The notes under the pieces were generated by a model, which did not search any database, was not told the DNA's origin, and worked only from the letters and a program-made list of their open reading frames with translations. From Escherichia phage vB_EcoM-Sa45lw, in sequence record MK977694.1: a stretch of DNA of 64,000 nucleotides; one strand, 5' to 3'. Positions 6,893 to 21,131 of the stretch are shown piece by piece. The position numbers were made by a program, and so were the translations under genes. Within the stretch, counting starts at the first letter, position 1. Each line of letters opens with the position of its first letter.

Positions 6893-7186
6893 TCAGCTGT
6901 AACGATAACACTCGTTTGATTTACGTTTAGCAACTCGTTGAGAAGTATTATAATCAAAATCATCGTCAATGTAAACTGATTTTTTCAACTTTCTTACTTC
7001 ACCACGTAATTGGCGATTTAGCTCATCTTTAACTTCTGAATCAATACCTTTCATTCTACGCCATTTATCTGAGCGAAAAATGTTTTCAACCATATCTTTA
7101 TGACTTACCCCATCAGGAGCTTTACGCTTTCCGAAATAGTCATAATCACGCACTTTTAAGTCTTTACGACGATACGTTTTACCCAT
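6893..7186 (-). CDS. Hypothetical highly basic protein (97 aa from ATG)
   Basis: ORF track 6893..7225 begins at GTG; ATG at 7186; Lys/Arg-rich. Confidence 0.45.
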   Translation of the reverse strand: MGKTYRRKDLKVRDYDYFGKRKAPDGVSHKDMVENIFRSDKWRRMKGIDSEVKDELNRQLRGEVRKLKKSVYIDDDFDYNTSQRVAKRKSNECYRYS

Positions 7187-7361
7187 GGAGTTTAATTTCC
7201 TTAGCAACTGAACTAAATGCAGCACGATCGCAAATCATGCGTTTATGTAACTTGAGTATAATATAGCAAACTTCAAAACTATTTACATGAGTAACACGAA
7301 CAGCATTACCATTAATGAGATAATACTGTCCCTTTTTAATTTCTTTATCAACCACAACCAT
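7179..7361 (-). CDS. Hypothetical protein (60 aa)
   Basis: ORF track; GAGGA + ATG directly downstream of early promoter 7392..7421. Confidence 0.5.
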   Translation of the reverse strand: MVVVDKEIKKGQYYLINGNAVRVTHVNSFEVCYIILKLHKRMICDRAAFSSVAKEIKLHG

Positions 7362-7391
7362 ATCAAATCCTCAAAGGTAATTCATATGTTA

Positions 7392-7421
7392 ATAATACCA
7401 CGGTTTGAACTTGTTGTAAAC
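7392..7421 (-). promoter_or_regulatory. T4-type early promoter (-35 GTTTAC, 18 bp, -10 TATTAT)
   Basis: Minus strand: aaagttGTTTACaacaagttcaaaccgtggTATTATtaacat; followed by SD+ATG. Confidence 0.6.
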
Positions 7422-7490
7422 AACTTTGTGAAAAATATTTCAGGGAATGATAAGAAAGGAACGATAGCTTAGAATGGTAATATACAGAAT

Positions 7491-7516
7491 GTAAGAAAGA
7501 AAGGCCCAGAGGGCCC
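7491..7516 (-). terminator. Intrinsic terminator (minus strand): GGGCC-tct-GGGCC hairpin + U-rich tract after nrdH-like stop
   Basis: Minus strand reads agatGGGCCctctGGGCCtttctttctt. Confidence 0.55.
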
Positions 7517-7519
7517 ATC

Positions 7520-7843
7520 TTAGTCTTCTATGATATCTCTATCATATCCAAGTGAAATGAGAGTTTCTTTGAAGTGTTTAATGTTCTTTTGTCTAGAATC
7601 ATTAATGAAAATGACTGGATAACGAATGTTAAGAGATGTGAATCCAGCGCGTTTAGCAAGAGATACAATCAGCGGACGATCATACTCAATCTTACCATTA
7701 TTTGTAAGAACTTTATAGAAAGTAAAAGGAGCATTGAGCTCCTTTAGAAGTTTTGTAACTGATTGACATCCAGGACAACGACCAACTTCATCTGGAATTC
7801 CGTAGACTTCAATCTTATTCTTTAAGTTCGAGTTTTGTTCCAC
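7520..7843 (-). CDS. Glutaredoxin/NrdH-like redoxin (CPGC active site)
   Basis: ...KIEVYGIPDEVGRCPGCQSVTKLL... thioredoxin-fold CxxC; probable GTG start at 7843 after AAGGA; the track's upstream extension to 7972 is low-complexity. Confidence 0.6.
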   Translation of the reverse strand: MEQNSNLKNKIEVYGIPDEVGRCPGCQSVTKLLKELNAPFTFYKVLTNNGKIEYDRPLIVSLAKRAGFTSLNIRYPVIFINDSRQKNIKHFKETLISLGYDRDIIED

Positions 7844-8126
7844 GAGAAATAATTCCTTGGTAAGCCCAATAAGGAGGATTAACAGAATCCTCACCAGAGT
7901 TTTCTTCAGGAAAATAAACCTGGATAACGAAGCCGGATTCATCAAAGGTGAAATAAGTAGTAGGCAGTTCACCTAACAAATCGGCACGGGCGTTGATTTC
8001 TTCGAGGTCTTGTTCACGTCCAGCCCAGAAGCTTGGGTTCAGACTACATTCATAGAAATAATAGTCATTACCGAACATATCAAAACCATTCCAACTCTCT
8101 ACTACATACCGCTCAAAACTAATCAT
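7815..8126 (-). CDS. Hypothetical protein (103 aa)
   Basis: ORF track; ATG start. Confidence 0.5.
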   Translation of the reverse strand: MISFERYVVESWNGFDMFGNDYYFYECSLNPSFWAGREQDLEEINARADLLGELPTTYFTFDESGFVIQVYFPEENSGEDSVNPPYWAYQGIISRGTKLELKE

Positions 8127-12001: not shown

Positions 12002-12322
12002 TTATAGCGTAATCCATTCTCGTACTATCTGAGTTACTACACGTTCACGGGGCTCGACTAGTTCAACAGTCGGAACTGCATAATACCAGTCAGAATGATA
12101 AGAACCTGACCGAGATTCATTTACCGCTACATGTACATTATGTTTTGGACTAAAGTAAACACACTGACGATATTGACATTTACCATCTTGCACCCAGTCT
12201 TCTATTTCGACAGGTTTAAGATAATCGGAAAAATCGAAATCATAGTTTTCCGAAAATGCATCATGGTCTTCAATGATTTCGCTCAGAACTGCATCAACAT
12301 CTAATTTATTTTCAATAGTCAT
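12002..12322 (-). CDS. Hypothetical protein (106 aa)
   Basis: ORF track; ATG start. Confidence 0.5.
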   Translation of the reverse strand: MTIENKLDVDAVLSEIIEDHDAFSENYDFDFSDYLKPVEIEDWVQDGKCQYRQCVYFSPKHNVHVAVNESRSGSYHSDWYYAVPTVELVEPRERVVTQIVREWITL

Positions 12323-12982: not shown

Positions 12983-13225
12983 TTATTCCTTAATTCCTAG
13001 TACTTGTTTAAAAGTCTCGTCGTAATCAAGACTTTGGCCCGTTTGTTCTTTATGTTTGTATATAATATCACTTACTTCTGATAGCATATTTTTGTATGAA
13101 CGAGTTACAGCAGATTTAAGCACGCTGTATCTATCAGGAAATTTACCATGTTCATTATAATAAGCTATTGCTAATTCACGGACTGCCTTTTCAGCAGCCT
13201 CCATATATTCTTTACGCTTGGTCAT
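12983..13225 (-). CDS. Hypothetical protein (80 aa)
   Basis: ORF track; ATG start. Confidence 0.5.
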
Positions 13226-13227
13226 TT

Positions 13228-13617
13228 TTAATCCAAAATATTATTAGGCATTGGTTGAACACTCACAAGTTCTTTAAAGAACTCAGTAGAGTCAGGCAAT
13301 TTAACCATTTCCGGAGCATGCTTACTGAATTTATGTTTACATTGACGGCATTTATATTCAAGCTCTGGTTTACGCCAGTTAATCAATTGAACTTGTTCAG
13401 TACCGCATTCAGGGCAATTAGGAACGTTTTTAGAAGCTCTTTCACGTCGTTCAACCATAGCCATAATAGCATCCCATGCTGGAGGTTTAAAATCTAAATC
13501 ATCGCAGCCGTGAATCTTTCCACGCATTTCCATATCATCTTCCTCACCAGCCATAATAATTTTAATTAGACTAGAATTACTTGAAGCTGCAATGTCTTCT
13601 AATAAACGCTTTTTCAT
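13228..13617 (-). CDS. Hypothetical protein with putative zinc ribbon (CPECG...CRQC)
   Basis: ORF track; paired CxxC motifs 18 residues apart. Confidence 0.5.
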
Positions 13618-14543
13618 TTCAATACCTCAATAGCATTACGTAAACCATTTGCTTTGGCGGTTAAAGCCTTAAGAACTTTAGTATGCTCTTCAATTTGTTT
13701 TTCAACTTCAGTCAAACGGGCATTGAGATATTCACGTTCTTCACCCAGATTATCAACCTTTTCTACTTTAGGCTCTTTTACAACTGTCTTATATGTATTA
13801 GGGTTCTTCAGTTTAATTAGAATGCGTGAACTGTATAACATTGAACCATTATCTTCGGTTTCGTCATACATTTCCACTACGTCCATAATTTTTAACATCA
13901 TGCGGAGTTTATAAGACAACGAACGAATAGTTTTGTTGTGCTTATTAATTTCTTTAGCTGTCATGGTGCCGAGATTACGTGAGTAATAATAAGGAACCTG
14001 GATATTAATTAATACTGATGAACCACCTGGCTTGTGTGTTACTTCATCAGCAATAACCCAATCCTTAACATGAACTGTATTTGTACGGTCATCGCCCGCG
14101 GTAAATAGTTTACGAGCATGCTTAAAAAGCATATTCACTTGGTCATTGAATTGACAAGCGAATTTATCAGCAAATTTAGTTTCGGGAATGGTAGATAACC
14201 AATCAGCCAAATGAGTCTTTTTAACATCGTTAACAATAGTAAATTCAACCAAATCGGTTATAGATGTCTCAGATTTAATGAAGCTCGGCTTCATAAAGTT
14301 TTTAATGTTATCGCGAGCTACAGTAGAAGATAACATACGAGAACGTTTAAACCATTCAAGCAAATTGCCTAACGAATGAGAATAAGCGTTTTGAGTATCT
14401 TTACAGATATGATTTTCCTGGCCAACATATTGAAGGAAATCACGAAGAATATTATTGATTACTGCTCTGTGTCCTATCTGATAATTACGATGTTTAGTAA
14501 TAAGACTGTCAAAATAATCAATATAATGTTTACGAGTTTTCAT
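13614..14543 (-). CDS. Coiled-coil paralog family member 1 (309 aa)
   Basis: ORF track; ATG start; C-terminal heptad-rich charged tail; first of four tandem related ORFs. Confidence 0.6.
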   Translation of the reverse strand: MKTRKHYIDYFDSLITKHRNYQIGHRAVINNILRDFLQYVGQENHICKDTQNAYSHSLGNLLEWFKRSRMLSSTVARDNIKNFMKPSFIKSETSITDLVEFTIVNDVKKTHLADWLSTIPETKFADKFACQFNDQVNMLFKHARKLFTAGDDRTNTVHVKDWVIADEVTHKPGGSSVLINIQVPYYYSRNLGTMTAKEINKHNKTIRSLSYKLRMMLKIMDVVEMYDETEDNGSMLYSSRILIKLKNPNTYKTVVKEPKVEKVDNLGEEREYLNARLTEVEKQIEEHTKVLKALTAKANGLRNAIEVLK

Positions 14544-14595
14544 GTTCTTCTCACTTGGTTAATGATTTATACTCCGAGCCATCCTTGGCTTTAAA

Positions 14596-15597
14596 TTACT
14601 TAATTAACTGTAAAGCTTGTTCAAGACGATCCAGGCGATTAACAGATTCTTCCCAAATCCTTTTAGCCTGCTCATATTCTTTCTGCGCTTTATTAGAAAT
14701 TTCTAGAACTTCTTTATAAGCTTTTTCTAGTGCAATAACTTCTGGACGAATTTCTACCGGTTCAGGTGAATCATCAAGACATTCCATTAGTTCCTCAAGG
14801 GTAGTTTCTTCTTTAGGAGTATTCACAATTTCATCACATTTTTGTTGGTAAATTTCTTTACTAGTAGGTGAATAAGTACATTTCACTTCACGAAGACTAA
14901 CTACAATTTTATATCCTTCCCAACCGCATATATTCTTAAAAGGATATGTATGAATATTTTCTACTGTTTCCATACAAAGTAATGCGGTCTCTAATTGACG
15001 AGTTATAGTGCTAGCAATTGAGAAAAATTTATTAATGTTCTTTTGGTTAGTTTCTGGTGTAAAAAATCCATAATTCACAAAAATAGCTACTTTATTTTTA
15101 TCAAGTTCATATTCTTTTATGATAATCATATCAGAAGCCAAAGGATGAATTTGACGATAATCGCCATAACATAATTTAGAAGCTGATTTTAGAATTTGCT
15201 TCTTGAAAAGTCTGAAATTACTAATCCAACGACGAGTAAAAATATTCTCAGGGTCTTCTTTATTATTGAGATGATAAGAATTAACATCACCGAACCAATT
15301 ATATCCTACTACATCTTTAGTTCGTTTAATTTCTTTCCCAAAATTACCAAGAATATCCCGATTAACCAAATATGAAAGAAGACGAGACTCTTTAAAGGTT
15401 TTCTTGATAACATCTTTATCTACACGGCTAGAAATTTTACGAATTTCATGAATAAATTTAGTAGAAGAAACAATACTTGCATCAACACTATTGAGCCATT
15501 GATTGATAATAGAAAGAACGATATTTTGACCAAACATCGGTATAGCTTTATCATCAATAACGCTATTGAATGATTTGATATATTCGTTACGAGTCAT
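14596..15597 (-). CDS. Coiled-coil paralog family member 2 (333 aa from ATG)
   Basis: ATG at 15597 preceded by GAGGA and early promoter; shares motif with member 3; C-terminal coiled coil. Confidence 0.6.
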   Translation of the reverse strand: MTRNEYIKSFNSVIDDKAIPMFGQNIVLSIINQWLNSVDASIVSSTKFIHEIRKISSRVDKDVIKKTFKESRLLSYLVNRDILGNFGKEIKRTKDVVGYNWFGDVNSYHLNNKEDPENIFTRRWISNFRLFKKQILKSASKLCYGDYRQIHPLASDMIIIKEYELDKNKVAIFVNYGFFTPETNQKNINKFFSIASTITRQLETALLCMETVENIHTYPFKNICGWEGYKIVVSLREVKCTYSPTSKEIYQQKCDEIVNTPKEETTLEELMECLDDSPEPVEIRPEVIALEKAYKEVLEISNKAQKEYEQAKRIWEESVNRLDRLEQALQLIK

Positions 15598-15625
15598 AAT
15601 AATCTCCTCAGTAGAAAGTAAGAAC

Positions 15626-15655
15626 ATTATACCACATCCTTGTGGTAAAGTAAAC
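15626..15655 (-). promoter_or_regulatory. T4-type early promoter (GTTTAC, 18 bp, TATAAT) for paralog 2
   Basis: Minus strand: actaGTTTACtttaccacaaggatgtggTATAATgttc; -35 overlaps stop of upstream gene. Confidence 0.6.
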
Positions 15656-16674
15656 TAGTTCAGTGCATTTAATGCATTGTTCAGTTTAGAACGTTGCTTC
15701 GTGAGATTTTTGACTTTTTCTTGTGCTTTTTCTAGCATCTTTTCAGCTTCTAACACTTCATTGGTCGCTTTAACGAGTTCATCATCTACTGCCTTAAGGG
15801 ACTTCTCAATCGCATCCGCGTGCCATTTTTCAACAGGTTTAAGACTCGGATTTTCAATAGGAAGAAAATTCACTTTATTGAATTTCCATGCATCTTTATT
15901 ACCTGAACTATACATCCAAAATTTAGGATCATTTGACGAGTAATTAGATAAATTTAAGGTATCTTGTACTTCCTGCTTTTTCTCTTGTGTAACTTCGTCC
16001 TTTCTCAAAAAATCGTATTTAAATGAAACGATCATATCAAGTTCATATGTTGTTGTGTCTAATTTAAATCGTTCGAAATGCTGTGAAATCTTAGACTGAA
16101 CTGCAGCAACAACATCCATATACTTAAATGCTTCTGTCAGCTGTGATTTAAGGCATTCACAAATTGAAAGAGAATTTTTTGTATTAGGTTTAAAGCTAAT
16201 TCGTGCAGTTCTATTATTTTCTTTTAATGGTCTTACTTCCATCTGAAGAGTATAACCATCAAATTTCAGATTCTTTAAGTTAATATCAGAGCCTTTTAAT
16301 CGACTAGCCGTCGACAAAATTTGCTTTAATTGTTTACGGAATAGAGCAATAAATCTCCACTCAAGACGATAATGATTTGGATTAAAAAATCCAGATGATA
16401 AATCGACCTTACTCTGACCAACACCTTGAACAAACAGAGGATTTTTATAATCAATAGTTTTACAGAAATCGGTGAGCTGCTCACGAGCAGTCATTTGTGT
16501 AATATACCCCGCTTTACTAAAATGACGTAACCATTCACTGCTATTCATATATTTAAAGTGAATATCACGATTAACTTTATCAGGGTCTAAATTATTTTGG
16601 CACAAAAATGTCATAACATCACGAGTATAGCTGGCATTACGAACCATATCTTCAATTTGAGAACGAGTTTTCAT
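15655..16674 (-). CDS. Coiled-coil paralog family member 3 (339 aa)
   Basis: ORF track; ATG start with AAGGA; C-terminal coiled coil. Confidence 0.6.
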   Translation of the reverse strand: MKTRSQIEDMVRNASYTRDVMTFLCQNNLDPDKVNRDIHFKYMNSSEWLRHFSKAGYITQMTAREQLTDFCKTIDYKNPLFVQGVGQSKVDLSSGFFNPNHYRLEWRFIALFRKQLKQILSTASRLKGSDINLKNLKFDGYTLQMEVRPLKENNRTARISFKPNTKNSLSICECLKSQLTEAFKYMDVVAAVQSKISQHFERFKLDTTTYELDMIVSFKYDFLRKDEVTQEKKQEVQDTLNLSNYSSNDPKFWMYSSGNKDAWKFNKVNFLPIENPSLKPVEKWHADAIEKSLKAVDDELVKATNEVLEAEKMLEKAQEKVKNLTKQRSKLNNALNALN

Positions 16675-16682
16675 GGTGTTCC

Positions 16683-17570
16683 TTAAGATTTAAGTAAATC
16701 AACAATTTTAATTAACTTTTCACGCTCAGATTTAGCTTTACTACTCAATCCAGATAGTCTGAAAATTTCATCGTCATATTGTTGAATAGAAATATTTAGC
16801 TCTTCAATTTGCTTATTAAAATAATCAATTTGTTCAGAATGTTTTTCGTTACTACGAACTGGTACAGGTTTTGTAGGAAATTTAGTTAAACTGGATTCAT
16901 CCGGGCGATAAATTAAAATGCAATTTGAACCAATCGGGCATTTAGCACCAGATGAATATTCTAACGTTCCAGCTTCTTTTAAAACTTCAAAAGCTAAACA
17001 GAGATGATGCCCCATATTAACATAATCTGTAGAGCGAGCTCTGATATAATAATCATCGCCGCGAATACTAAATTTAAAGCATTTAAGGTCTTCTGTATTA
17101 TTGGTCTTAAAAATCATTTGTTTATCTAGACCTTTAGCTAATCGAGCGCCTAATGCTAATAATCGTCGTTGATTTTCCCACAAATCTGCGATCATTTGGT
17201 CAAATGATAATTTCGGCATTAATCGACCATAAAGGTCATATCCTTTATTATAATTGCGAAGAATTTCACTTGCATTAATACGAGACAATGCTCCAATTTT
17301 ATTAAGGGCTTTCATAATGCGATTAGATAAACCCATTCCAGACCCGTTTGTTCGCTGTAAATGTTTTTCTAATCCAAATCCAATATCAACTTTAAACTTA
17401 TCTAAAATTTCTGTATGAACATCTCTGTCAATAACATTCAAATCCAAAGTTGGGTTAAATCTATGAAAAAAATTATCTGGCTCTCCACGACGAAGTACAG
17501 TCCATTCATTCAATTTTTTATTAACTAAAGATTTAATTACTGCATTGACATTATTAATTACTACTGACAT
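16683..17570 (-). CDS. Coiled-coil paralog family member 4 (295 aa from ATG)
   Basis: Track start 17591 is TTG; ATG at 17570 preceded by GAGGA; C-terminal coiled coil. Confidence 0.55.
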   Translation of the reverse strand: MSVVINNVNAVIKSLVNKKLNEWTVLRRGEPDNFFHRFNPTLDLNVIDRDVHTEILDKFKVDIGFGLEKHLQRTNGSGMGLSNRIMKALNKIGALSRINASEILRNYNKGYDLYGRLMPKLSFDQMIADLWENQRRLLALGARLAKGLDKQMIFKTNNTEDLKCFKFSIRGDDYYIRARSTDYVNMGHHLCLAFEVLKEAGTLEYSSGAKCPIGSNCILIYRPDESSLTKFPTKPVPVRSNEKHSEQIDYFNKQIEELNISIQQYDDEIFRLSGLSSKAKSEREKLIKIVDLLKS

Positions 17571-17577
17571 ATTTTCC

Positions 17578-17985
17578 TCACTCAATTTCAATTTTACTAA
17601 ATACGCAGAATATGATGGAACAGACTATATAAGCACCACACACAGATTGAACTAATACCATTCCAAAGAACCAAACAATATTATCAAACAATGTCTGTTT
17701 TACGTCGAAAGGACGTAAACTTACAGTAATATTATCACCTTTTTCTATTGAAGAATACATCTCTGGTGAAATATATTCGCTAAATCTATAACCGTCTTTA
17801 AGTTCATATACAGCAATAAACGATAAACTAGACCCCTTTCCTTGAGTTCCTGTAAAGGTATTAACTACAGTAACATCATAATCTTTATAATGCATATAAT
17901 CATTAATTGCGTAATAACCATATGCAATTACTATACATAAACAACATATCAATAAATTCAATCTTTTAATTATCAACTGTTTCAT
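17578..17985 (-). CDS. Hypothetical membrane protein (135 aa, N- and C-terminal hydrophobic helices)
   Basis: ORF track; ATG start; hydrophobic LLICCLCIVIAYGYYAI and FFGMVLVQSVCGAYIVCSIIF. Confidence 0.55.
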   Translation of the reverse strand: MKQLIIKRLNLLICCLCIVIAYGYYAINDYMHYKDYDVTVVNTFTGTQGKGSSLSFIAVYELKDGYRFSEYISPEMYSSIEKGDNITVSLRPFDVKQTLFDNIVWFFGMVLVQSVCGAYIVCSIIFCVFSKIEIE

Positions 17986-18040
17986 AATAATCTCAATTAA
18001 AAGGGCTTAGAACCATTATACCATCCTTGGTATAAAGCGG

Positions 18041-18568
18041 TTATGCGAGTACCGTCTTTAACCGTTCTTCAAATTTCCGAAGAGTATTTTGGCGTTCAGC
18101 TCTTTGCTTTTTGTAAGTTTCAATACGCTCTGAAATGAGATTGTATCGTTCATTTACTGTTTCTTTCATAAAATCAGGAATTTCACGAGAAGCTTTAATC
18201 TCGTCAAATTTATCAATAACAGCTTGCTCTTCAGCAATTAAGTTATCATACATCAAAATATCTTTCTTGATGAACTCAATATCTTCTTGAGTTACACGAG
18301 ATAATTTAGATGCTTTATCCTTTTTGTACTGTTCGTTAGTATCACGAGACCAGTGTAATGTACGATTTTTATTCGTATTCTTGTAAATTTCTACAATACC
18401 AATCTCATCGATAATAACGATCCAATTCCAACGAGATTTGTAAATTTGTCCTCCGTCAACCATGATTTCACCTCCGATTGAGATGTCATTAAAGAACTTG
18501 CTTTGTGCTTCAGATTTAAATTTACCATCATTGTAGTTTACCAAGTTGAAAATATCTTTAGCATTCAT
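18041..18568 (-). CDS. Hypothetical protein with C-terminal coiled coil (175 aa)
   Basis: ORF track; GGAGGA + ATG directly downstream of early promoter. Confidence 0.55.
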   Translation of the reverse strand: MNAKDIFNLVNYNDGKFKSEAQSKFFNDISIGGEIMVDGGQIYKSRWNWIVIIDEIGIVEIYKNTNKNRTLHWSRDTNEQYKKDKASKLSRVTQEDIEFIKKDILMYDNLIAEEQAVIDKFDEIKASREIPDFMKETVNERYNLISERIETYKKQRAERQNTLRKFEERLKTVLA

Positions 18569-18595
18569 TTTTGTTCCTCCGTAGTTGATAGTTGT

Positions 18596-18625
18596 ATAGT
18601 ACCACAGAGGAATGGTCTTGTAAAC
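18596..18625 (-). promoter_or_regulatory. T4-type early promoter (GTTTAC, 18 bp, TACTAT)
   Basis: Minus strand: tagttGTTTACaagaccattcctctgtggTACTATacaac. Confidence 0.6.
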
Positions 18626-19033: not shown

Positions 19034-20002
19034 TTATTTCAGAAGAGTAACCTCAGCGATTTCTTCCCAACCGTTTTTGTCGGTCATAATAAAGTCAGCA
19101 AGATAAAGCGCAGTACGCAGTGAAACATTGCGTAAACGATTAACATTGACTTTCATCCATGATAATGCTTTATAAGTTTCTTCATCAGAAAGACCGCGCT
19201 TTTGCATCATGTCAGTTGAAAGAATAACATCTTCAACCCTGACCATAATTTCTTCATTAGTGTGAACACCCAAATCCAAATAAACTGAGCGGGACACTAA
19301 TGCTTGTAAATGTGGAGCAAGTTTAGTACCACGATCTAATTCGCGGTCAATGTCAACGTTTGTGATAAAAACAATCGTTCCTTTAAATTCAAACTCACGC
19401 TCAATGCCTTTTTCTTCTAAGTAAGAAGATGCGGTGCTCCAGCAGACTTTACGGGTCTCTCCGGTGTCCAGAGCAGCTTTCAGAAGATTAAGAATGTCCA
19501 TATCAGAGAAAACATCCACATCATCAATCAAAAGGACAGAATTCTCTTCACGATTATTCCAAAGCTGTTCATAAAGACCAATACCAGAGATTTTACCATT
19601 AATGCTTTTATATTCAATGTATCCAATATCATTTGCTTTATTTAAAGCTTTATCTAAAGAATACGTTTTACCAATACCTGCTGCTCCCGAGATAATTAAT
19701 GAACGAATGTTTCCGTTAATAATACCATTCGTCATCATTCCCATAACATTAAATCTTTTATTAATGCGGGTTTTCATATCTTCATACGATTCTTTAACTT
19801 CTTCAACTTTTACACCATCATATGAAATGTCTGATTTATAAACCCAAACACCGCGACGTTTACCGTCAATTTCAACAAAAACTTTACCATCTCCTTGTGC
19901 ATCTACCGGAGCATTATCTGGGAACCATTCACCTAAGAGCTCAAAAGTTCCAGAGATTTCTTTACCGAAGTAGATACCCTTATTGATAGTTACAGTTTTC
20001 AT
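19034..20002 (-). CDS. P-loop NTPase, AAA-like ATPase (323 aa from ATG)
   Basis: Walker A GAAGIGKT, Walker B VLLIDDVD, sensor-like TIVFITN; ATG at 20002 with GGAG; own early promoter. Confidence 0.65.
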   Translation of the reverse strand: MKTVTINKGIYFGKEISGTFELLGEWFPDNAPVDAQGDGKVFVEIDGKRRGVWVYKSDISYDGVKVEEVKESYEDMKTRINKRFNVMGMMTNGIINGNIRSLIISGAAGIGKTYSLDKALNKANDIGYIEYKSINGKISGIGLYEQLWNNREENSVLLIDDVDVFSDMDILNLLKAALDTGETRKVCWSTASSYLEEKGIEREFEFKGTIVFITNVDIDRELDRGTKLAPHLQALVSRSVYLDLGVHTNEEIMVRVEDVILSTDMMQKRGLSDEETYKALSWMKVNVNRLRNVSLRTALYLADFIMTDKNGWEEIAEVTLLK

Positions 20003-20036
20003 TTTATTCTCCAAATCCGTATCAGTTGATAGTTGT

Positions 20037-20066
20037 ATAGTACCATAAAGCTTTATGCTTGTAAAC
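20037..20066 (-). promoter_or_regulatory. T4-type early promoter (GTTTAC, 18 bp, TACTAT) for ATPase gene
   Basis: Minus strand: aaattGTTTACaagcataaagctttatggTACTATacaac. Confidence 0.6.
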
Positions 20067-20091
20067 AATTTTGTGAAAAAATTTTTGAAAT

Positions 20092-20115
20092 AAAAAAGGG
20101 AGCCCGAAGGCTCCC
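20092..20115 (-). terminator. Intrinsic terminator (minus strand): GGGAGCC-UUCG-GGCUCCC hairpin + U6, 2 nt after NTase stop
   Basis: Minus strand reads tgataGGGAGCCTTCGGGCTCCCttttttatttc. Confidence 0.65.
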
Positions 20116-20117
20116 TA

Positions 20118-21131
20118 TCATTTATAATAACTTCGGTGGTTTTCAAGATAGACCTTCTCAAGGAAGTCATCCCAGAAACCCATGTCTACTTTTTGCTGCA
20201 TACCGTTCTTAGAAGCTTCAGTAGATGCTGCTTCTACTTGATCGACCACATCTTCCAAAAACTCTTGAACTGTTTTAAATGGGTGTTTACCCAGCTTCAC
20301 GTCGAGAATAAATGGAGCGTCTTGAAGTGGATAGACTAAGTCACCAGTTTTGTAAATTTCCAATAGTTGGAGTCCACCACGACAAGCATGACTCAGAGCT
20401 TTCCAGTCAATGCCCTCATTCGCTTCAGCCTTACGAGCACGTTCGCCGTATTCAGCATCTAATTTGTTCAGTGACTGCTTAAGCTCAATAAGAGAAAGTG
20501 TTGTCTGATATTTACGACCCAACACAGTGTAAAACGTTTGTGGACCTGTTTTCTCATGATTATGGAATACCCATTCACAGAACTCGTTTTCAGGGAGTCT
20601 GTGTTTGATATCTTCTACCTTAGTACGACGAAGTCTATCAGGGATTCCTTCTTGATAGTCGACCCACTGGTCAGGGATTTGATTAACTACTTTCAATACA
20701 TCACGTAATGCGGCCAAACGAGAACCCTTGACACCGTATTTAGAAGCTTGCTTGCGGACATATCCTAAATAGGATTTCATGTTAGTTGTATAAAACCGTG
20801 AACGATTGTCTTGAATAAACTTCCACACATCAGGCAAATCAGATTTAACCACTAGTTCAGGTGGAGTGTGAAGCATATCCAATGCTACAGTTTCACCATC
20901 TGCTGCTAATTTAAAGAAATATTTAAGACTGTATAGTTCATGGTCAATATCATCTTTAGTGTTTTTAGATGATGTGTTGTTAGTGTTTTTACTCATATGC
21001 TCTTTAACATTTCCGATAAGAATATCGCGAGCACGAGGAACAAAGATTTCTTTAAAATCTACATCAGATTCTGGAGTAGAAGTTCCATAAAGATGACTAC
21101 CAAAATAGCTTTTCATTACTGTTTTCATCAT
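20118..21131 (-). CDS. Predicted nucleotidyltransferase (pol-beta superfamily fold), 337 aa
   Basis: N-terminal hG[GS]x11DxD motif: YFGSHLYGTSTPESDVDF, plus downstream acidic residues (ADGETVALDMLH). Confidence 0.6.
   Translation of the reverse strand: MMKTVMKSYFGSHLYGTSTPESDVDFKEIFVPRARDILIGNVKEHMSKNTNNTSSKNTKDDIDHELYSLKYFFKLAADGETVALDMLHTPPELVVKSDLPDVWKFIQDNRSRFYTTNMKSYLGYVRKQASKYGVKGSRLAALRDVLKVVNQIPDQWVDYQEGIPDRLRRTKVEDIKHRLPENEFCEWVFHNHEKTGPQTFYTVLGRKYQTTLSLIELKQSLNKLDAEYGERARKAEANEGIDWKALSHACRGGLQLLEIYKTGDLVYPLQDAPFILDVKLGKHPFKTVQEFLEDVVDQVEAASTEASKNGMQQKVDMGFWDDFLEKVYLENHRSYYK

Follow-up and report, generated by a model that had tools for sequence, protein, structure and literature searches.

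Four consecutive minus-strand genes of Escherichia phage vB_EcoM-Sa45lw, a Tequatrovirus, have diverged from a single ancestral gene; in order, they match nrdC.3, nrdC.4, nrdC.5 and nrdC.6 of phage T4. The window in which they were analysed is a 64,000-nucleotide stretch of the phage genome (MK977694.1). The array does not represent a novel type of system; T4 nrdC.5 is already known to overcome Dsr1, a NAD-depleting SIR2 defence protein of the host (Srikant, Guegler & Laub 2022, PMC9391042). The reading we favour, with a probability of roughly 0.6, is that the array is a fast-evolving, early and non-essential counter-defence family whose members would act as stoichiometric binders, one immune target per copy.

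The array occupies positions 13614-17570, and its products are of 309, 333, 339 and 295 aa, as the first-pass annotation had described. The NrdC.3 ortholog (13614..14543, minus strand, 309 aa) and the NrdC.4 ortholog (14596..15597, minus, 333 aa) are open reading frames that both fall within phrog_1435 (NrdC.3/NrdC.4), with full-length HMM matches (E 1.6e-115 and 4.6e-168, respectively). The NrdC.5 ortholog (15655..16674, minus, 339 aa) belongs to Pfam family DUF7235 and to phrog_2351, and the NrdC.6 ortholog (16683..17570, minus, 295 aa) has its full-length HMM match in phrog_2257 (E 2.9e-152). MKTR- or MTRN-like starts are seen in three of the four, as noted at first pass. The length of NrdC.4 is counted from a conserved MTRNEYI start, the longest reading frame beginning at 15627. 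For NrdC.6, the ATG at 17570 is preceded by a GAGGA Shine-Dalgarno site; the span first given, 13614-17591, is therefore right at its start and too long at its end, since the longest reading frame starts with a TTG at 17591.

The DNA of the array region is 96-98% identical to at least 468 Tequatrovirus records, and annotated relatives carry NrdC.3 through NrdC.6 in the same order. Protein identity to T4 is 97.9% for NrdC.4, 97% for NrdC.6 and 93.4% for NrdC.5, which lies at the same genome position with the nrdC.4 and nrdC.6 orthologs on either side; NrdC.3 is a divergent allele with 61.6% identity. Judged by identity and gene order, the four genes are one-to-one orthologs of T4 nrdC.3, nrdC.4, nrdC.5 and nrdC.6, and they are named accordingly below. 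In the first-pass annotation, a clear one-to-one match with T4 proteins whose function is known was to count against the family; the orthology holds for all four, and a known function for nrdC.5 only. NrdC.5 scores 409.3 bits on DUF7235 (PF23882), where the cut-off is 30, and is covered over residues 1-339, while the other three gave no match to this HMM in the Pfam scan. Homologs of NrdC.6 carry the precomputed accession PF26899.1, and the PF26899 model itself matched nothing when Pfam was scanned locally.

The four proteins are true paralogs, with evidence that is uneven between pairs. All-versus-all BLASTP yields one significant pair, NrdC.3 and NrdC.4 (25% identity over 226 aa, E 2e-6), whose families align in hhalign with a probability of 97.6-98.9%; by sequence these two are clearly related. 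NrdC.4 and NrdC.5 are probably related, with hhalign probabilities of 70-94% for matches that span 220-287 columns. An internal block common to these two, RRWISNFRLFKKQILKSASKL, had been called clear; it reaches only E 3 in BLASTP by itself, but it sits inside the profile-profile match and stands as part of it. The alignment check originally suggested thus succeeds at the BLASTP level for a single pair, and profile comparison links the rest.

NrdC.6 is the most diverged paralog, and it joins the family only through transitive profile links and Foldseek. Compared directly with the other three families by hhalign it scores below 5%, which is not significant, and in both PHROGs and Pfam it forms a family of its own, as would be expected if it were an unrelated protein merely sharing a C-terminal coiled coil, in which case the array would be three-membered. 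Bridging sequences (br1 and br2) were, however, obtained by an exhaustive search of a set of 1.84 billion proteins, and hhalign was rerun with them after removal of the coiled-coil tails. In these tail-less comparisons NrdC.6 is linked to br1 (m4_N-br1_N) at 96.1%, br1 to NrdC.4 (br1_N-m2_N) at 92.9%, br1 to br2 at 94.0%, and br2 to NrdC.3, NrdC.4 and NrdC.5 at 95.3%, 96.2% and 95.8%; NrdC.3 and NrdC.4 remain linked at 97.8%. Because the tail-less profiles still connect via the bridges, the globular part is homologous and not just the coiled coil. Furthermore, each of the bridging proteins P0233, P0235, P0241 and P0246 is picked up by the NrdC.6 HMM as well as by the NrdC.5 HMM. Foldseek matches the NrdC.4 model to NrdC.6 of phage JS10 (E 1.4e-4), and the NrdC.4 and NrdC.6 models share eight targets, all proteins of other T4-like phages, although TM-scores for the NrdC.6-related matches are only 0.39-0.49. 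The order of secondary-structure elements is identical in the AF2 models of NrdC.4 (pLDDT 82) and NrdC.6 (pLDDT 79), and four motifs are collinear across all four proteins in a MAFFT alignment. An unrelated NrdC.6 is accordingly very improbable, and the proposal of a tandem paralog family is borne out.

DNA repeats between the paralogs were rejected as evidence, the matches being too short (16-23 nt, some in register, start with start and tail with tail). NrdC.8 likewise has a tail of coiled-coil type, but hhalign (<1%) and HMM search rejected it as a fifth member; in the rest of the 64-kb window an HMM search found no additional copies.

All members appear to have a common layout, modelled for NrdC.4 and NrdC.6, in which a helical N-region is followed by a helix pair bearing an A-x-K/R-L…G-D motif, then by a ββ-α-ββ core, and a disordered linker leads to the C-terminal heptad helix. 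Family motif 1, a column block in the MAFFT alignment, reads TFKESRLLSYLVNRDILGNFGK in NrdC.4 (15334..15399, minus) and is found at 14289-14354 in NrdC.3, 16459-16524 in NrdC.5 and 17244-17309 in NrdC.6, all on the minus strand. Family motif 2 forms a single column block on the same strand, comprising QILKSASKLCYGDY in NrdC.4 (15157..15198), MLFKHARKLFTAGDD in NrdC.3 (14088-14132), QILSTASRLKGSD in NrdC.5 (16285-16323) and RLLALGARLAKGLD in NrdC.6 (17124-17165); in the AF2 models it falls in the helix pair, residues 119-148 of NrdC.4 and 123-150 of NrdC.6. No column of the alignment is invariant across the four families.

The C-terminal helices were assessed with a home-made heptad score, the criterion being that the C-terminus should form an amphipathic helix spanning four heptads or more. 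The best heptad window is C-terminal in all four proteins and scores above 285-300 of 300 shuffles. The helix of NrdC.3 comprises aa 259-309 (13617..13769, minus; score 1.62, mean of the shuffles 1.31, reached by 2 of 300 shuffles) and that of NrdC.5 aa 283-339 (15658..15828, minus; 1.72, likewise reached by 2 of 300). In NrdC.4 it covers aa 285-333 (14599..14745, minus), with an AF2 helix at 285-332 and heptad segments within 286-330, and in NrdC.6 there are two helices within aa 238-295 (16686..16859, minus; AF2 helices 242-271 and 277-294; score 1.70, reached by none of 300). These helices end in a common ‘…A-L-x-x-L-K’ motif. The heptad-rich tail reported for every member is thus upheld by the score in all four and by AF2 helices in NrdC.4 and NrdC.6, and on these predictions the helix, of 45-55 aa, probably oligomerises the protein. 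The accompanying picture, of distinct ~250-aa variable domains fused to a conserved oligomerisation tail, has to be given up: the tail-less families still connect, the motifs are collinear in all members, and body and tail are both homologous and about equally diverged (identity of 8-24% and 15-27%, respectively).

No catalytic motif had been seen at first pass, and this agrees with the Pfam scan, where no enzymatic domain reaches the gathering cut-off in any of the four. A match of NrdC.3 to the PHL domain (E 4e-4, below the cut-off, 37 residues) was put down to chance, and profile searches of PDB chain sequences with the NrdC.4 and NrdC.6 alignments gave no relevant match. Many GenBank records label these genes ‘thioredoxin’. 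The label is without support, as there is no thioredoxin match in Pfam at E<=1, none of the four contains CxxC and the AF2 topology of NrdC.4 and NrdC.6 is unlike thioredoxin; its spread seems to go back to the naming of the genes as nrdC.N.

The family is restricted to T4-like phages, with 28 proteins at E<=1e-3 among 1.84 billion representatives. The locus always adjoins nrdC and holds one copy in Kanagawavirus and Jiaodavirus, three in other genera and four in Tequatrovirus. This distribution indicates that the array grew by duplication in place, from one to three and then four copies at one locus. The youngest copy, on the same comparison, is nrdC.3, a duplicate of nrdC.4 that is confined to Tequatrovirus and missing at loci L007-L017. 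Identity to other genera is 39-50% for NrdC.4, 22-28% for NrdC.5 and 46-52% for NrdC.6, against 66-87% for NrdC, NrdC.8 and NrdC.10, and by this measure the family evolves faster than its neighbours. The array was first described as a diversifying family, which is correct in the sense of fast divergence and of two nrdC.3 alleles but not in that of positive selection, none being found gene-wide (dN/dS 0.07-0.40).

A promoter-like site of the sigma-70/T4-early type lies upstream of nrdC.4 (15626..15654, minus), comprising GTTTACT, 17 nt and TG-TATAAT. A consensus scan, followed by reading of the sequence, gave 10 of 12 consensus matches plus the TG extension, and the site is kept in T4 with one change in the spacer. 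The early promoter ascribed to this gene at first pass is therefore present as a conserved but putative element, while the modular acquisition that it was thought to suggest is contradicted by the in-place duplication seen in the comparison of loci. A MotA-type middle promoter in the gap between nrdC.4 and nrdC.3 was ruled out on reading the sequence, the spacing being wrong.

The anti-Dsr1 activity of T4 nrdC.5 comes from plaque assays with the T4 gene, in which a plasmid supplying nrdC.5 in trans enables a deletion mutant to plate again on Dsr1+ cells (PMC9391042). No renaming of NrdC.5 and no described mechanism for it was found in the literature. The first-pass guess at host takeover or anti-defence therefore holds for at least one member, T4 NrdC.5 being 93% identical to that of this phage, and the statement that function is unassigned is outdated for NrdC.5 but still applies to the other three, which have no reported activity. 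In the counter-defence reading, each paralog would be a non-enzymatic protein binder blocking one host immune protein, whether sensor or effector. NrdC.5 would block Dsr1, NrdC.3, NrdC.4 and NrdC.6 would be candidates for blocking other host defence systems, and duplication and rapid divergence would have broadened the range of targets. Direct binding of NrdC.5 to Dsr1 is assumed here by analogy with DSAD1 and DSR2. With dN/dS below 1 there is no gene-wide arms-race signal, and this counts against the counter-defence reading.

The alternative that survives best, though we think it unlikely, is that counter-defence is limited to NrdC.5, the other members being host-takeover binders of housekeeping proteins, redundant or decaying. 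All four genes are non-essential in T4 by HIDEN-SEQ, as are the genes at the same positions in Bas37. No phenotype is reported for nrdC.3, nrdC.4 or nrdC.6, and the available part of the HIDEN-SEQ report records no significant conditional defect for them, the nearest signal being that of bas37_0201 (log2FC -0.73, p 0.057, q 0.81). Moreover, nrdC.4 is split in locus L006, BFVD has NrdC.4-like entries of 155-158 aa from T2 and G8, and a natural NrdC.5::NrdC.3 fusion (P0224) lacks nrdC.4. With such broken versions of nrdC.4 in some phages, part of the copies may be in decay and no longer active. Against this, hundreds of Tequatrovirus genomes keep the four genes intact and in the same order, the dN/dS values show purifying selection, and the surrounding genes of known role are mostly concerned with counter-defence. 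Neighbouring gp49.2 counters OLD, NrdC.1 counters Septu and bas37_0203, which falls in one 90%-identity cluster with NrdC.8 of this window, counters Druantia III.

Somewhat less probable again is indirect action, in which NrdC.5, and perhaps its paralogs, would mask the phage trigger or buffer the loss of NAD+. The TPR sensor domain of Dsr1 has been reported to recognise phage major capsid proteins, NAD+-restoring pathways likewise counter Dsr1, and, in its fold, the α/β core of the family looks similar to virion proteins. However, no enzymatic or nucleotide-binding signature was found; plasmid-borne nrdC.5 alone restores infection, which establishes sufficiency and does not separate direct from indirect action. 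A more speculative reading, to which we attach little weight, is that the tail-terminator-like α/β core makes the proteins decoys that jam immune sensors of the Dsr1/Avs7 TPR type, the heptad helices letting paralogs co-assemble into mixed oligomers as a multi-specific ‘immune sponge’ during early infection. A role in virion assembly, with kinship to tail terminator or tail completion proteins, is least credible of all, given that these are genes of the early nrdC block and not of the tail module, and are non-essential by HIDEN-SEQ.

T-even phages are a main test bed for counter-defence, and most genes of the nrdC-tk region have no known role. Being paralogs of the anti-Dsr1 protein NrdC.5, NrdC.3, NrdC.4 and NrdC.6 are good candidates for immune blockers, and three anonymous reading frames thus become specific candidates. 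A family with one, three or four copies also suits the study of how duplication may widen the anti-immune repertoire of a phage.

The nearest known system is T4 NrdC.5 itself, of which the NrdC.5 described here is the ortholog, whereas NrdC.3, NrdC.4 and NrdC.6 are remote paralogs of apparently the same architecture and are not known to act against Dsr1 or in any other way. The tail terminator and completion proteins (lambda gpU, T5 p142 and those like SPP1 gp17) show no sequence similarity that could be found to NrdC.3-6, which have an extra N-terminal helical region and the coiled coil. DSAD1 of SPbeta-like phages, the inhibitor of DSR2, likely follows the same principle as NrdC.5, that of a small protein without enzyme motifs disabling a SIR2-type NADase, although the two differ in size, in target (DSR2 and Dsr1) and in the coiled-coil tail, present only in NrdC.5. 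The profile searches of PDB chains, among which the reported DSR2-DSAD1 cryo-EM complexes should be included, revealed no sequence relationship of the family to DSAD1. Other T-even counter-defence genes, namely the dmd-tifA-adfA ‘anti-TA island’, gp49.2, NrdC.1 and bas37_0203/NrdC.8, are unrelated in sequence to NrdC.3-6 and none is a multi-copy tandem family of paralogs, but they are likewise early, dispensable and fast-evolving, and gp49.2, NrdC.1 and bas37_0203/NrdC.8 are found in this window at a distance of a few kb from the array.

The region 13000-18600 of the window matches hundreds of T-even phage records at 96-98% identity, and the window as a whole is a segment of a Tequatrovirus (T4-like) genome. 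Three encoded proteins that were compared are identical in every residue to those of Escherichia phage vB_EcoM-Sa45lw. The first-pass annotation had described an array of four genes here, and four consecutive minus-strand ORFs are indeed present, of 309 aa (13614-14543), 333 aa (14596-15597), 339 aa (15655-16674) and 295 aa (16683-17570). Comparison with the annotated relative vB_Eco_NR1 and with T4 establishes one-to-one orthology to nrdC.3, nrdC.4, nrdC.5 and nrdC.6, respectively, with protein identities to the T4 counterparts of 62, 98, 93 and 97%. The array genes are T4 ORFs known for a long time, one of them already with a counter-defense role. The upper end of the array needs adjustment, however, as 17591 marks the TTG with which the longest ORF begins; nrdC.6 starts at the ATG at 17570, which has a GAGGA Shine-Dalgarno site upstream and agrees with the MS..IN start conserved among the orthologs. 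From sequence and annotation, the 3' end of nrdC.6 appears to differ between the T4 RefSeq and other versions. In the RefSeq (locus L018, 9067-9894), the annotated gene is 828 nt long and separated from nrdC.5 by 70 nt, and the tblastn alignment of the window protein (16683-17570) to this locus ends at residue 258; the gene is ~890 nt long, with an 8-nt gap, in the window (888 nt) and in the T4 annotation of the HIDEN-SEQ preprint (891 nt).

Many GenBank and UniProt records of the nrdC.1-nrdC.10 block call NrdC.3 to NrdC.8 'thioredoxin'. All four array proteins are without a thioredoxin Pfam match and without a CxxC motif, and the label seems to be derived from the gene-name prefix nrdC.

In pairwise comparison of the array members, BLASTP is significant for NrdC.3-NrdC.4 only (E 2e-6, with 25% of residues identical in an alignment of 226 aa); these two share the PHROGs family phrog_1435, while NrdC.5 belongs to phrog_2351 and to Pfam DUF7235, and NrdC.6 to phrog_2257. 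Family alignments, made from 14 related viral loci and database homologs, were also compared as profiles. NrdC.3 and NrdC.4 match at 97.6-98.9%. NrdC.4 and NrdC.5 match at 70-94% over 220-287 columns, and the common block previously proposed for this pair lies inside the match, although the pair is not significant by BLASTP. NrdC.6 has no match to the other three in direct profile-profile comparison. A merged family profile was then searched against 1.84 billion representative proteins, and the family is narrow because only 28 of these reach E<=1e-3. Seven of the 28 are distant full-length members, falling into two bridging groups of intermediate sequences: the homologs P0233, P0235, P0241 and P0246 match both the NrdC.6 and the NrdC.5 HMM, and P0237 and P0240 match three or four family HMMs. 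Hhalign was rerun with the tails cut off, to exclude a coiled-coil artefact. NrdC.6 matches bridge 1 at 96.1% (E 3e-9), bridge 1 matches NrdC.4 at 92.9% and bridge 2 at 94.0%, and bridge 2 matches NrdC.3, NrdC.4 and NrdC.5 at 95.3, 96.2 and 95.8%. By these tail-less links (92.9-96.2%), one globular domain is common to all four members, NrdC.6 being linked transitively, via the bridging sequences.

Structure prediction and alignment were also brought to bear. The AF2 models of NrdC.4 (pLDDT 82) and NrdC.6 (pLDDT 79) have an identical order of elements: an N-terminal helical bundle, a helix pair (119-148 and 123-150, respectively), two β-hairpins with a helix between them, a low-confidence linker and a long terminal helix. 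In Foldseek searches of BFVD, the NrdC.4 model matches NrdC.6 of JS10 (E 1.4e-4), and eight proteins of 300-350 aa from other T4-like phages are matched by both models, with TM-scores that are modest in each case (0.39-0.49). Aligned together with MAFFT, the four families show four collinear motifs, F-K-x-S-R-L-L-S…A-R-x-x-L-x-N-F-G-K, h-L-x-x-A-x-K/R-L…G-D, L-x-x-A-L/F-x-x-M and a terminal …A-L-x-x-L-K. The C-terminal coiled-coil-like tail noted at first pass is a genuine heptad-amphipathic helix in every member, but the accompanying idea that each member joins a domain of its own to a conserved tail is wrong because the tail-less comparison links all four proteins through one globular domain; identity between paralogs is 15-27% in the tail and 8-24% in the body, so that the tail is not better conserved. 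Part of what is new here is that all four proteins form one superfamily, probably with a common fold, confined to T4-like phages. The new elements of this analysis are limited but useful.

Among deposited sequences, the closest to the bridging group are single genes of ~325-335 aa in Kanagawavirus (IME523) and Jiaodavirus (JD18), placed between nrdC.10/.11-like genes and nrdC. Counted with a superfamily HMM, there is one copy in each of these two genera, three in loci L007-L015 (where homologs carry Dhakavirus names, also JS10 and VR7/VR20/VR25/VR26) and four in Tequatrovirus, the fourth being nrdC.3, a duplicate of nrdC.4. The family has expanded by tandem duplication, and this series is one of growth in place, not of the modular acquisition first suggested. 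A promoter-like site upstream of nrdC.4 (GTTTACT-17-TG-TATAAT, 15654-15626, minus) fits a candidate early promoter and is kept in T4 with one spacer substitution; across the region such sites are not in excess (34 versus 31.4 ± 4.8 in shuffled sequence).

Array members diverge more quickly than neighboring genes. Between-genus identity is 39-50% for NrdC.4, 22-28% for NrdC.5 and 46-52% for NrdC.6, compared with 66-87% for NrdC, NrdC.8 and NrdC.10. Gene-wide dN/dS of the array genes is 0.07-0.40, and evolution is therefore fast under constraint, positive selection not being demonstrated. Two nrdC.3 alleles, the 309-aa type of the window (13614-14543, minus) and the 308-aa type of T4 (L018, 5934-6860), are only ~62% identical within flanks that are 92-100% identical (loci L003 and L004 were also compared), which looks like allelic replacement or localized rapid divergence. 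Genes of the array are also in flux. In locus L006, nrdC.4 is divided into two ORFs (6971-7552 and 7527-8003), and BFVD holds NrdC.4-like entries of 155 and 158 aa (A0A2Z5WKJ2 from T2 and A0A482N302 from G8) that are 96-97% identical over their own length; nrdC.4 may be a pseudogene in some phages. The homolog P0224 (299 aa; contigs up to 167 kb) is a natural NrdC.5::NrdC.3 chimera, comprising NrdC.5 from ~residue 146 to …KFNKVN and then NrdC.3 from MLFKHARKLF… to the C-terminal end, which implies loss of nrdC.4 through a deletion sited at a short FN..VN micro-homology that the paralogs share. P0064 (Shigella phage Sf25, 378 aa) is an NrdC.6 with an in-frame internal tandem duplication of ~83 aa; the segment IRAHSTDYVN…QIEEL, present twice, covers the β-α-β core and the first part of the coiled coil.

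On either side of the array, the slots of nrdC.2 and nrdC.7 are variable cassettes. The former (13228-13617, minus) encodes a zinc-ribbon protein of 129 aa that has 78% identity to T4 across 100 aa and differs at the C-terminus; the latter (17578-17985, minus) encodes a 135-aa protein without a counterpart in non-Tequatrovirus loci, and T4 NrdC.7 carries the annotation 'predicted membrane protein'. The ORF at the nrdC.10 position (19034-20170, minus, 378 aa) has a weak, sub-threshold AAA/STAND-like P-loop match. Its N-terminal extension contains a strong terminator-like hairpin at 20097-20116 (8 bp, 6 GC, then a T-run), and the true start is probably the Met at ~20002 (MKTVTINKG), agreeing with the 322-aa annotation in phage NR1.

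At least four counter-defense genes, gp49.2, NrdC.1, NrdC.5 and NrdC.8, lie within ~7 kb of sequence. The gp49.2 ortholog (12002-12322, minus) corresponds to T6 Gp49.2, reported to block OLD, and the NrdC.1 ortholog (12983-13225, minus) is 97.5% identical to T4 NrdC.1, reported to block Septu. NrdC.8 (18041-18568, minus, 175 aa) falls into a common 90%-identity cluster with bas37_0203 of KarlGJung (Bas37), which is reported to inhibit Druantia type III (2025 preprint) and which occupies the nrdC.8 position. NrdC.8 has a coiled-coil tail of its own; it is not a relative of the NrdC.3-6 family (hhalign <1%).

Within the array, function has been assigned for one member, by published genetics. A T4 deletion mutant fails to plate on ECOR17, or on MG1655 with ECOR17 dsr1, and plating is regained by expressing T4 nrdC.5 alone (Srikant, Guegler & Laub, eLife 2022, PMC9391042); we found no later literature on the NrdC.5 mechanism. 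HIDEN-SEQ (bioRxiv 10.1101/2025.11.20.689424) puts all four array genes of T4 in the non-essential class, together with the same-position genes of Bas37. In the array proteins, no enzymatic Pfam match exceeds its gathering cut-off; the alignment of the four families has no invariant residue, and no sequence relative of the family was found in the PDB. The best-supported reading is that the array proteins would be non-enzymatic, probably oligomeric inhibitors of host immune proteins, each paralog having one target of its own; direct binding, oligomerization and any target of NrdC.3, NrdC.4 and NrdC.6 we infer. The three uncharacterized paralogs thereby become specific candidates for new counter-defense activities. 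The known example of such inhibition would be that of NrdC.5 against Dsr1, a SIR2 NADase whose TPR sensor reportedly recognizes the phage major capsid protein.
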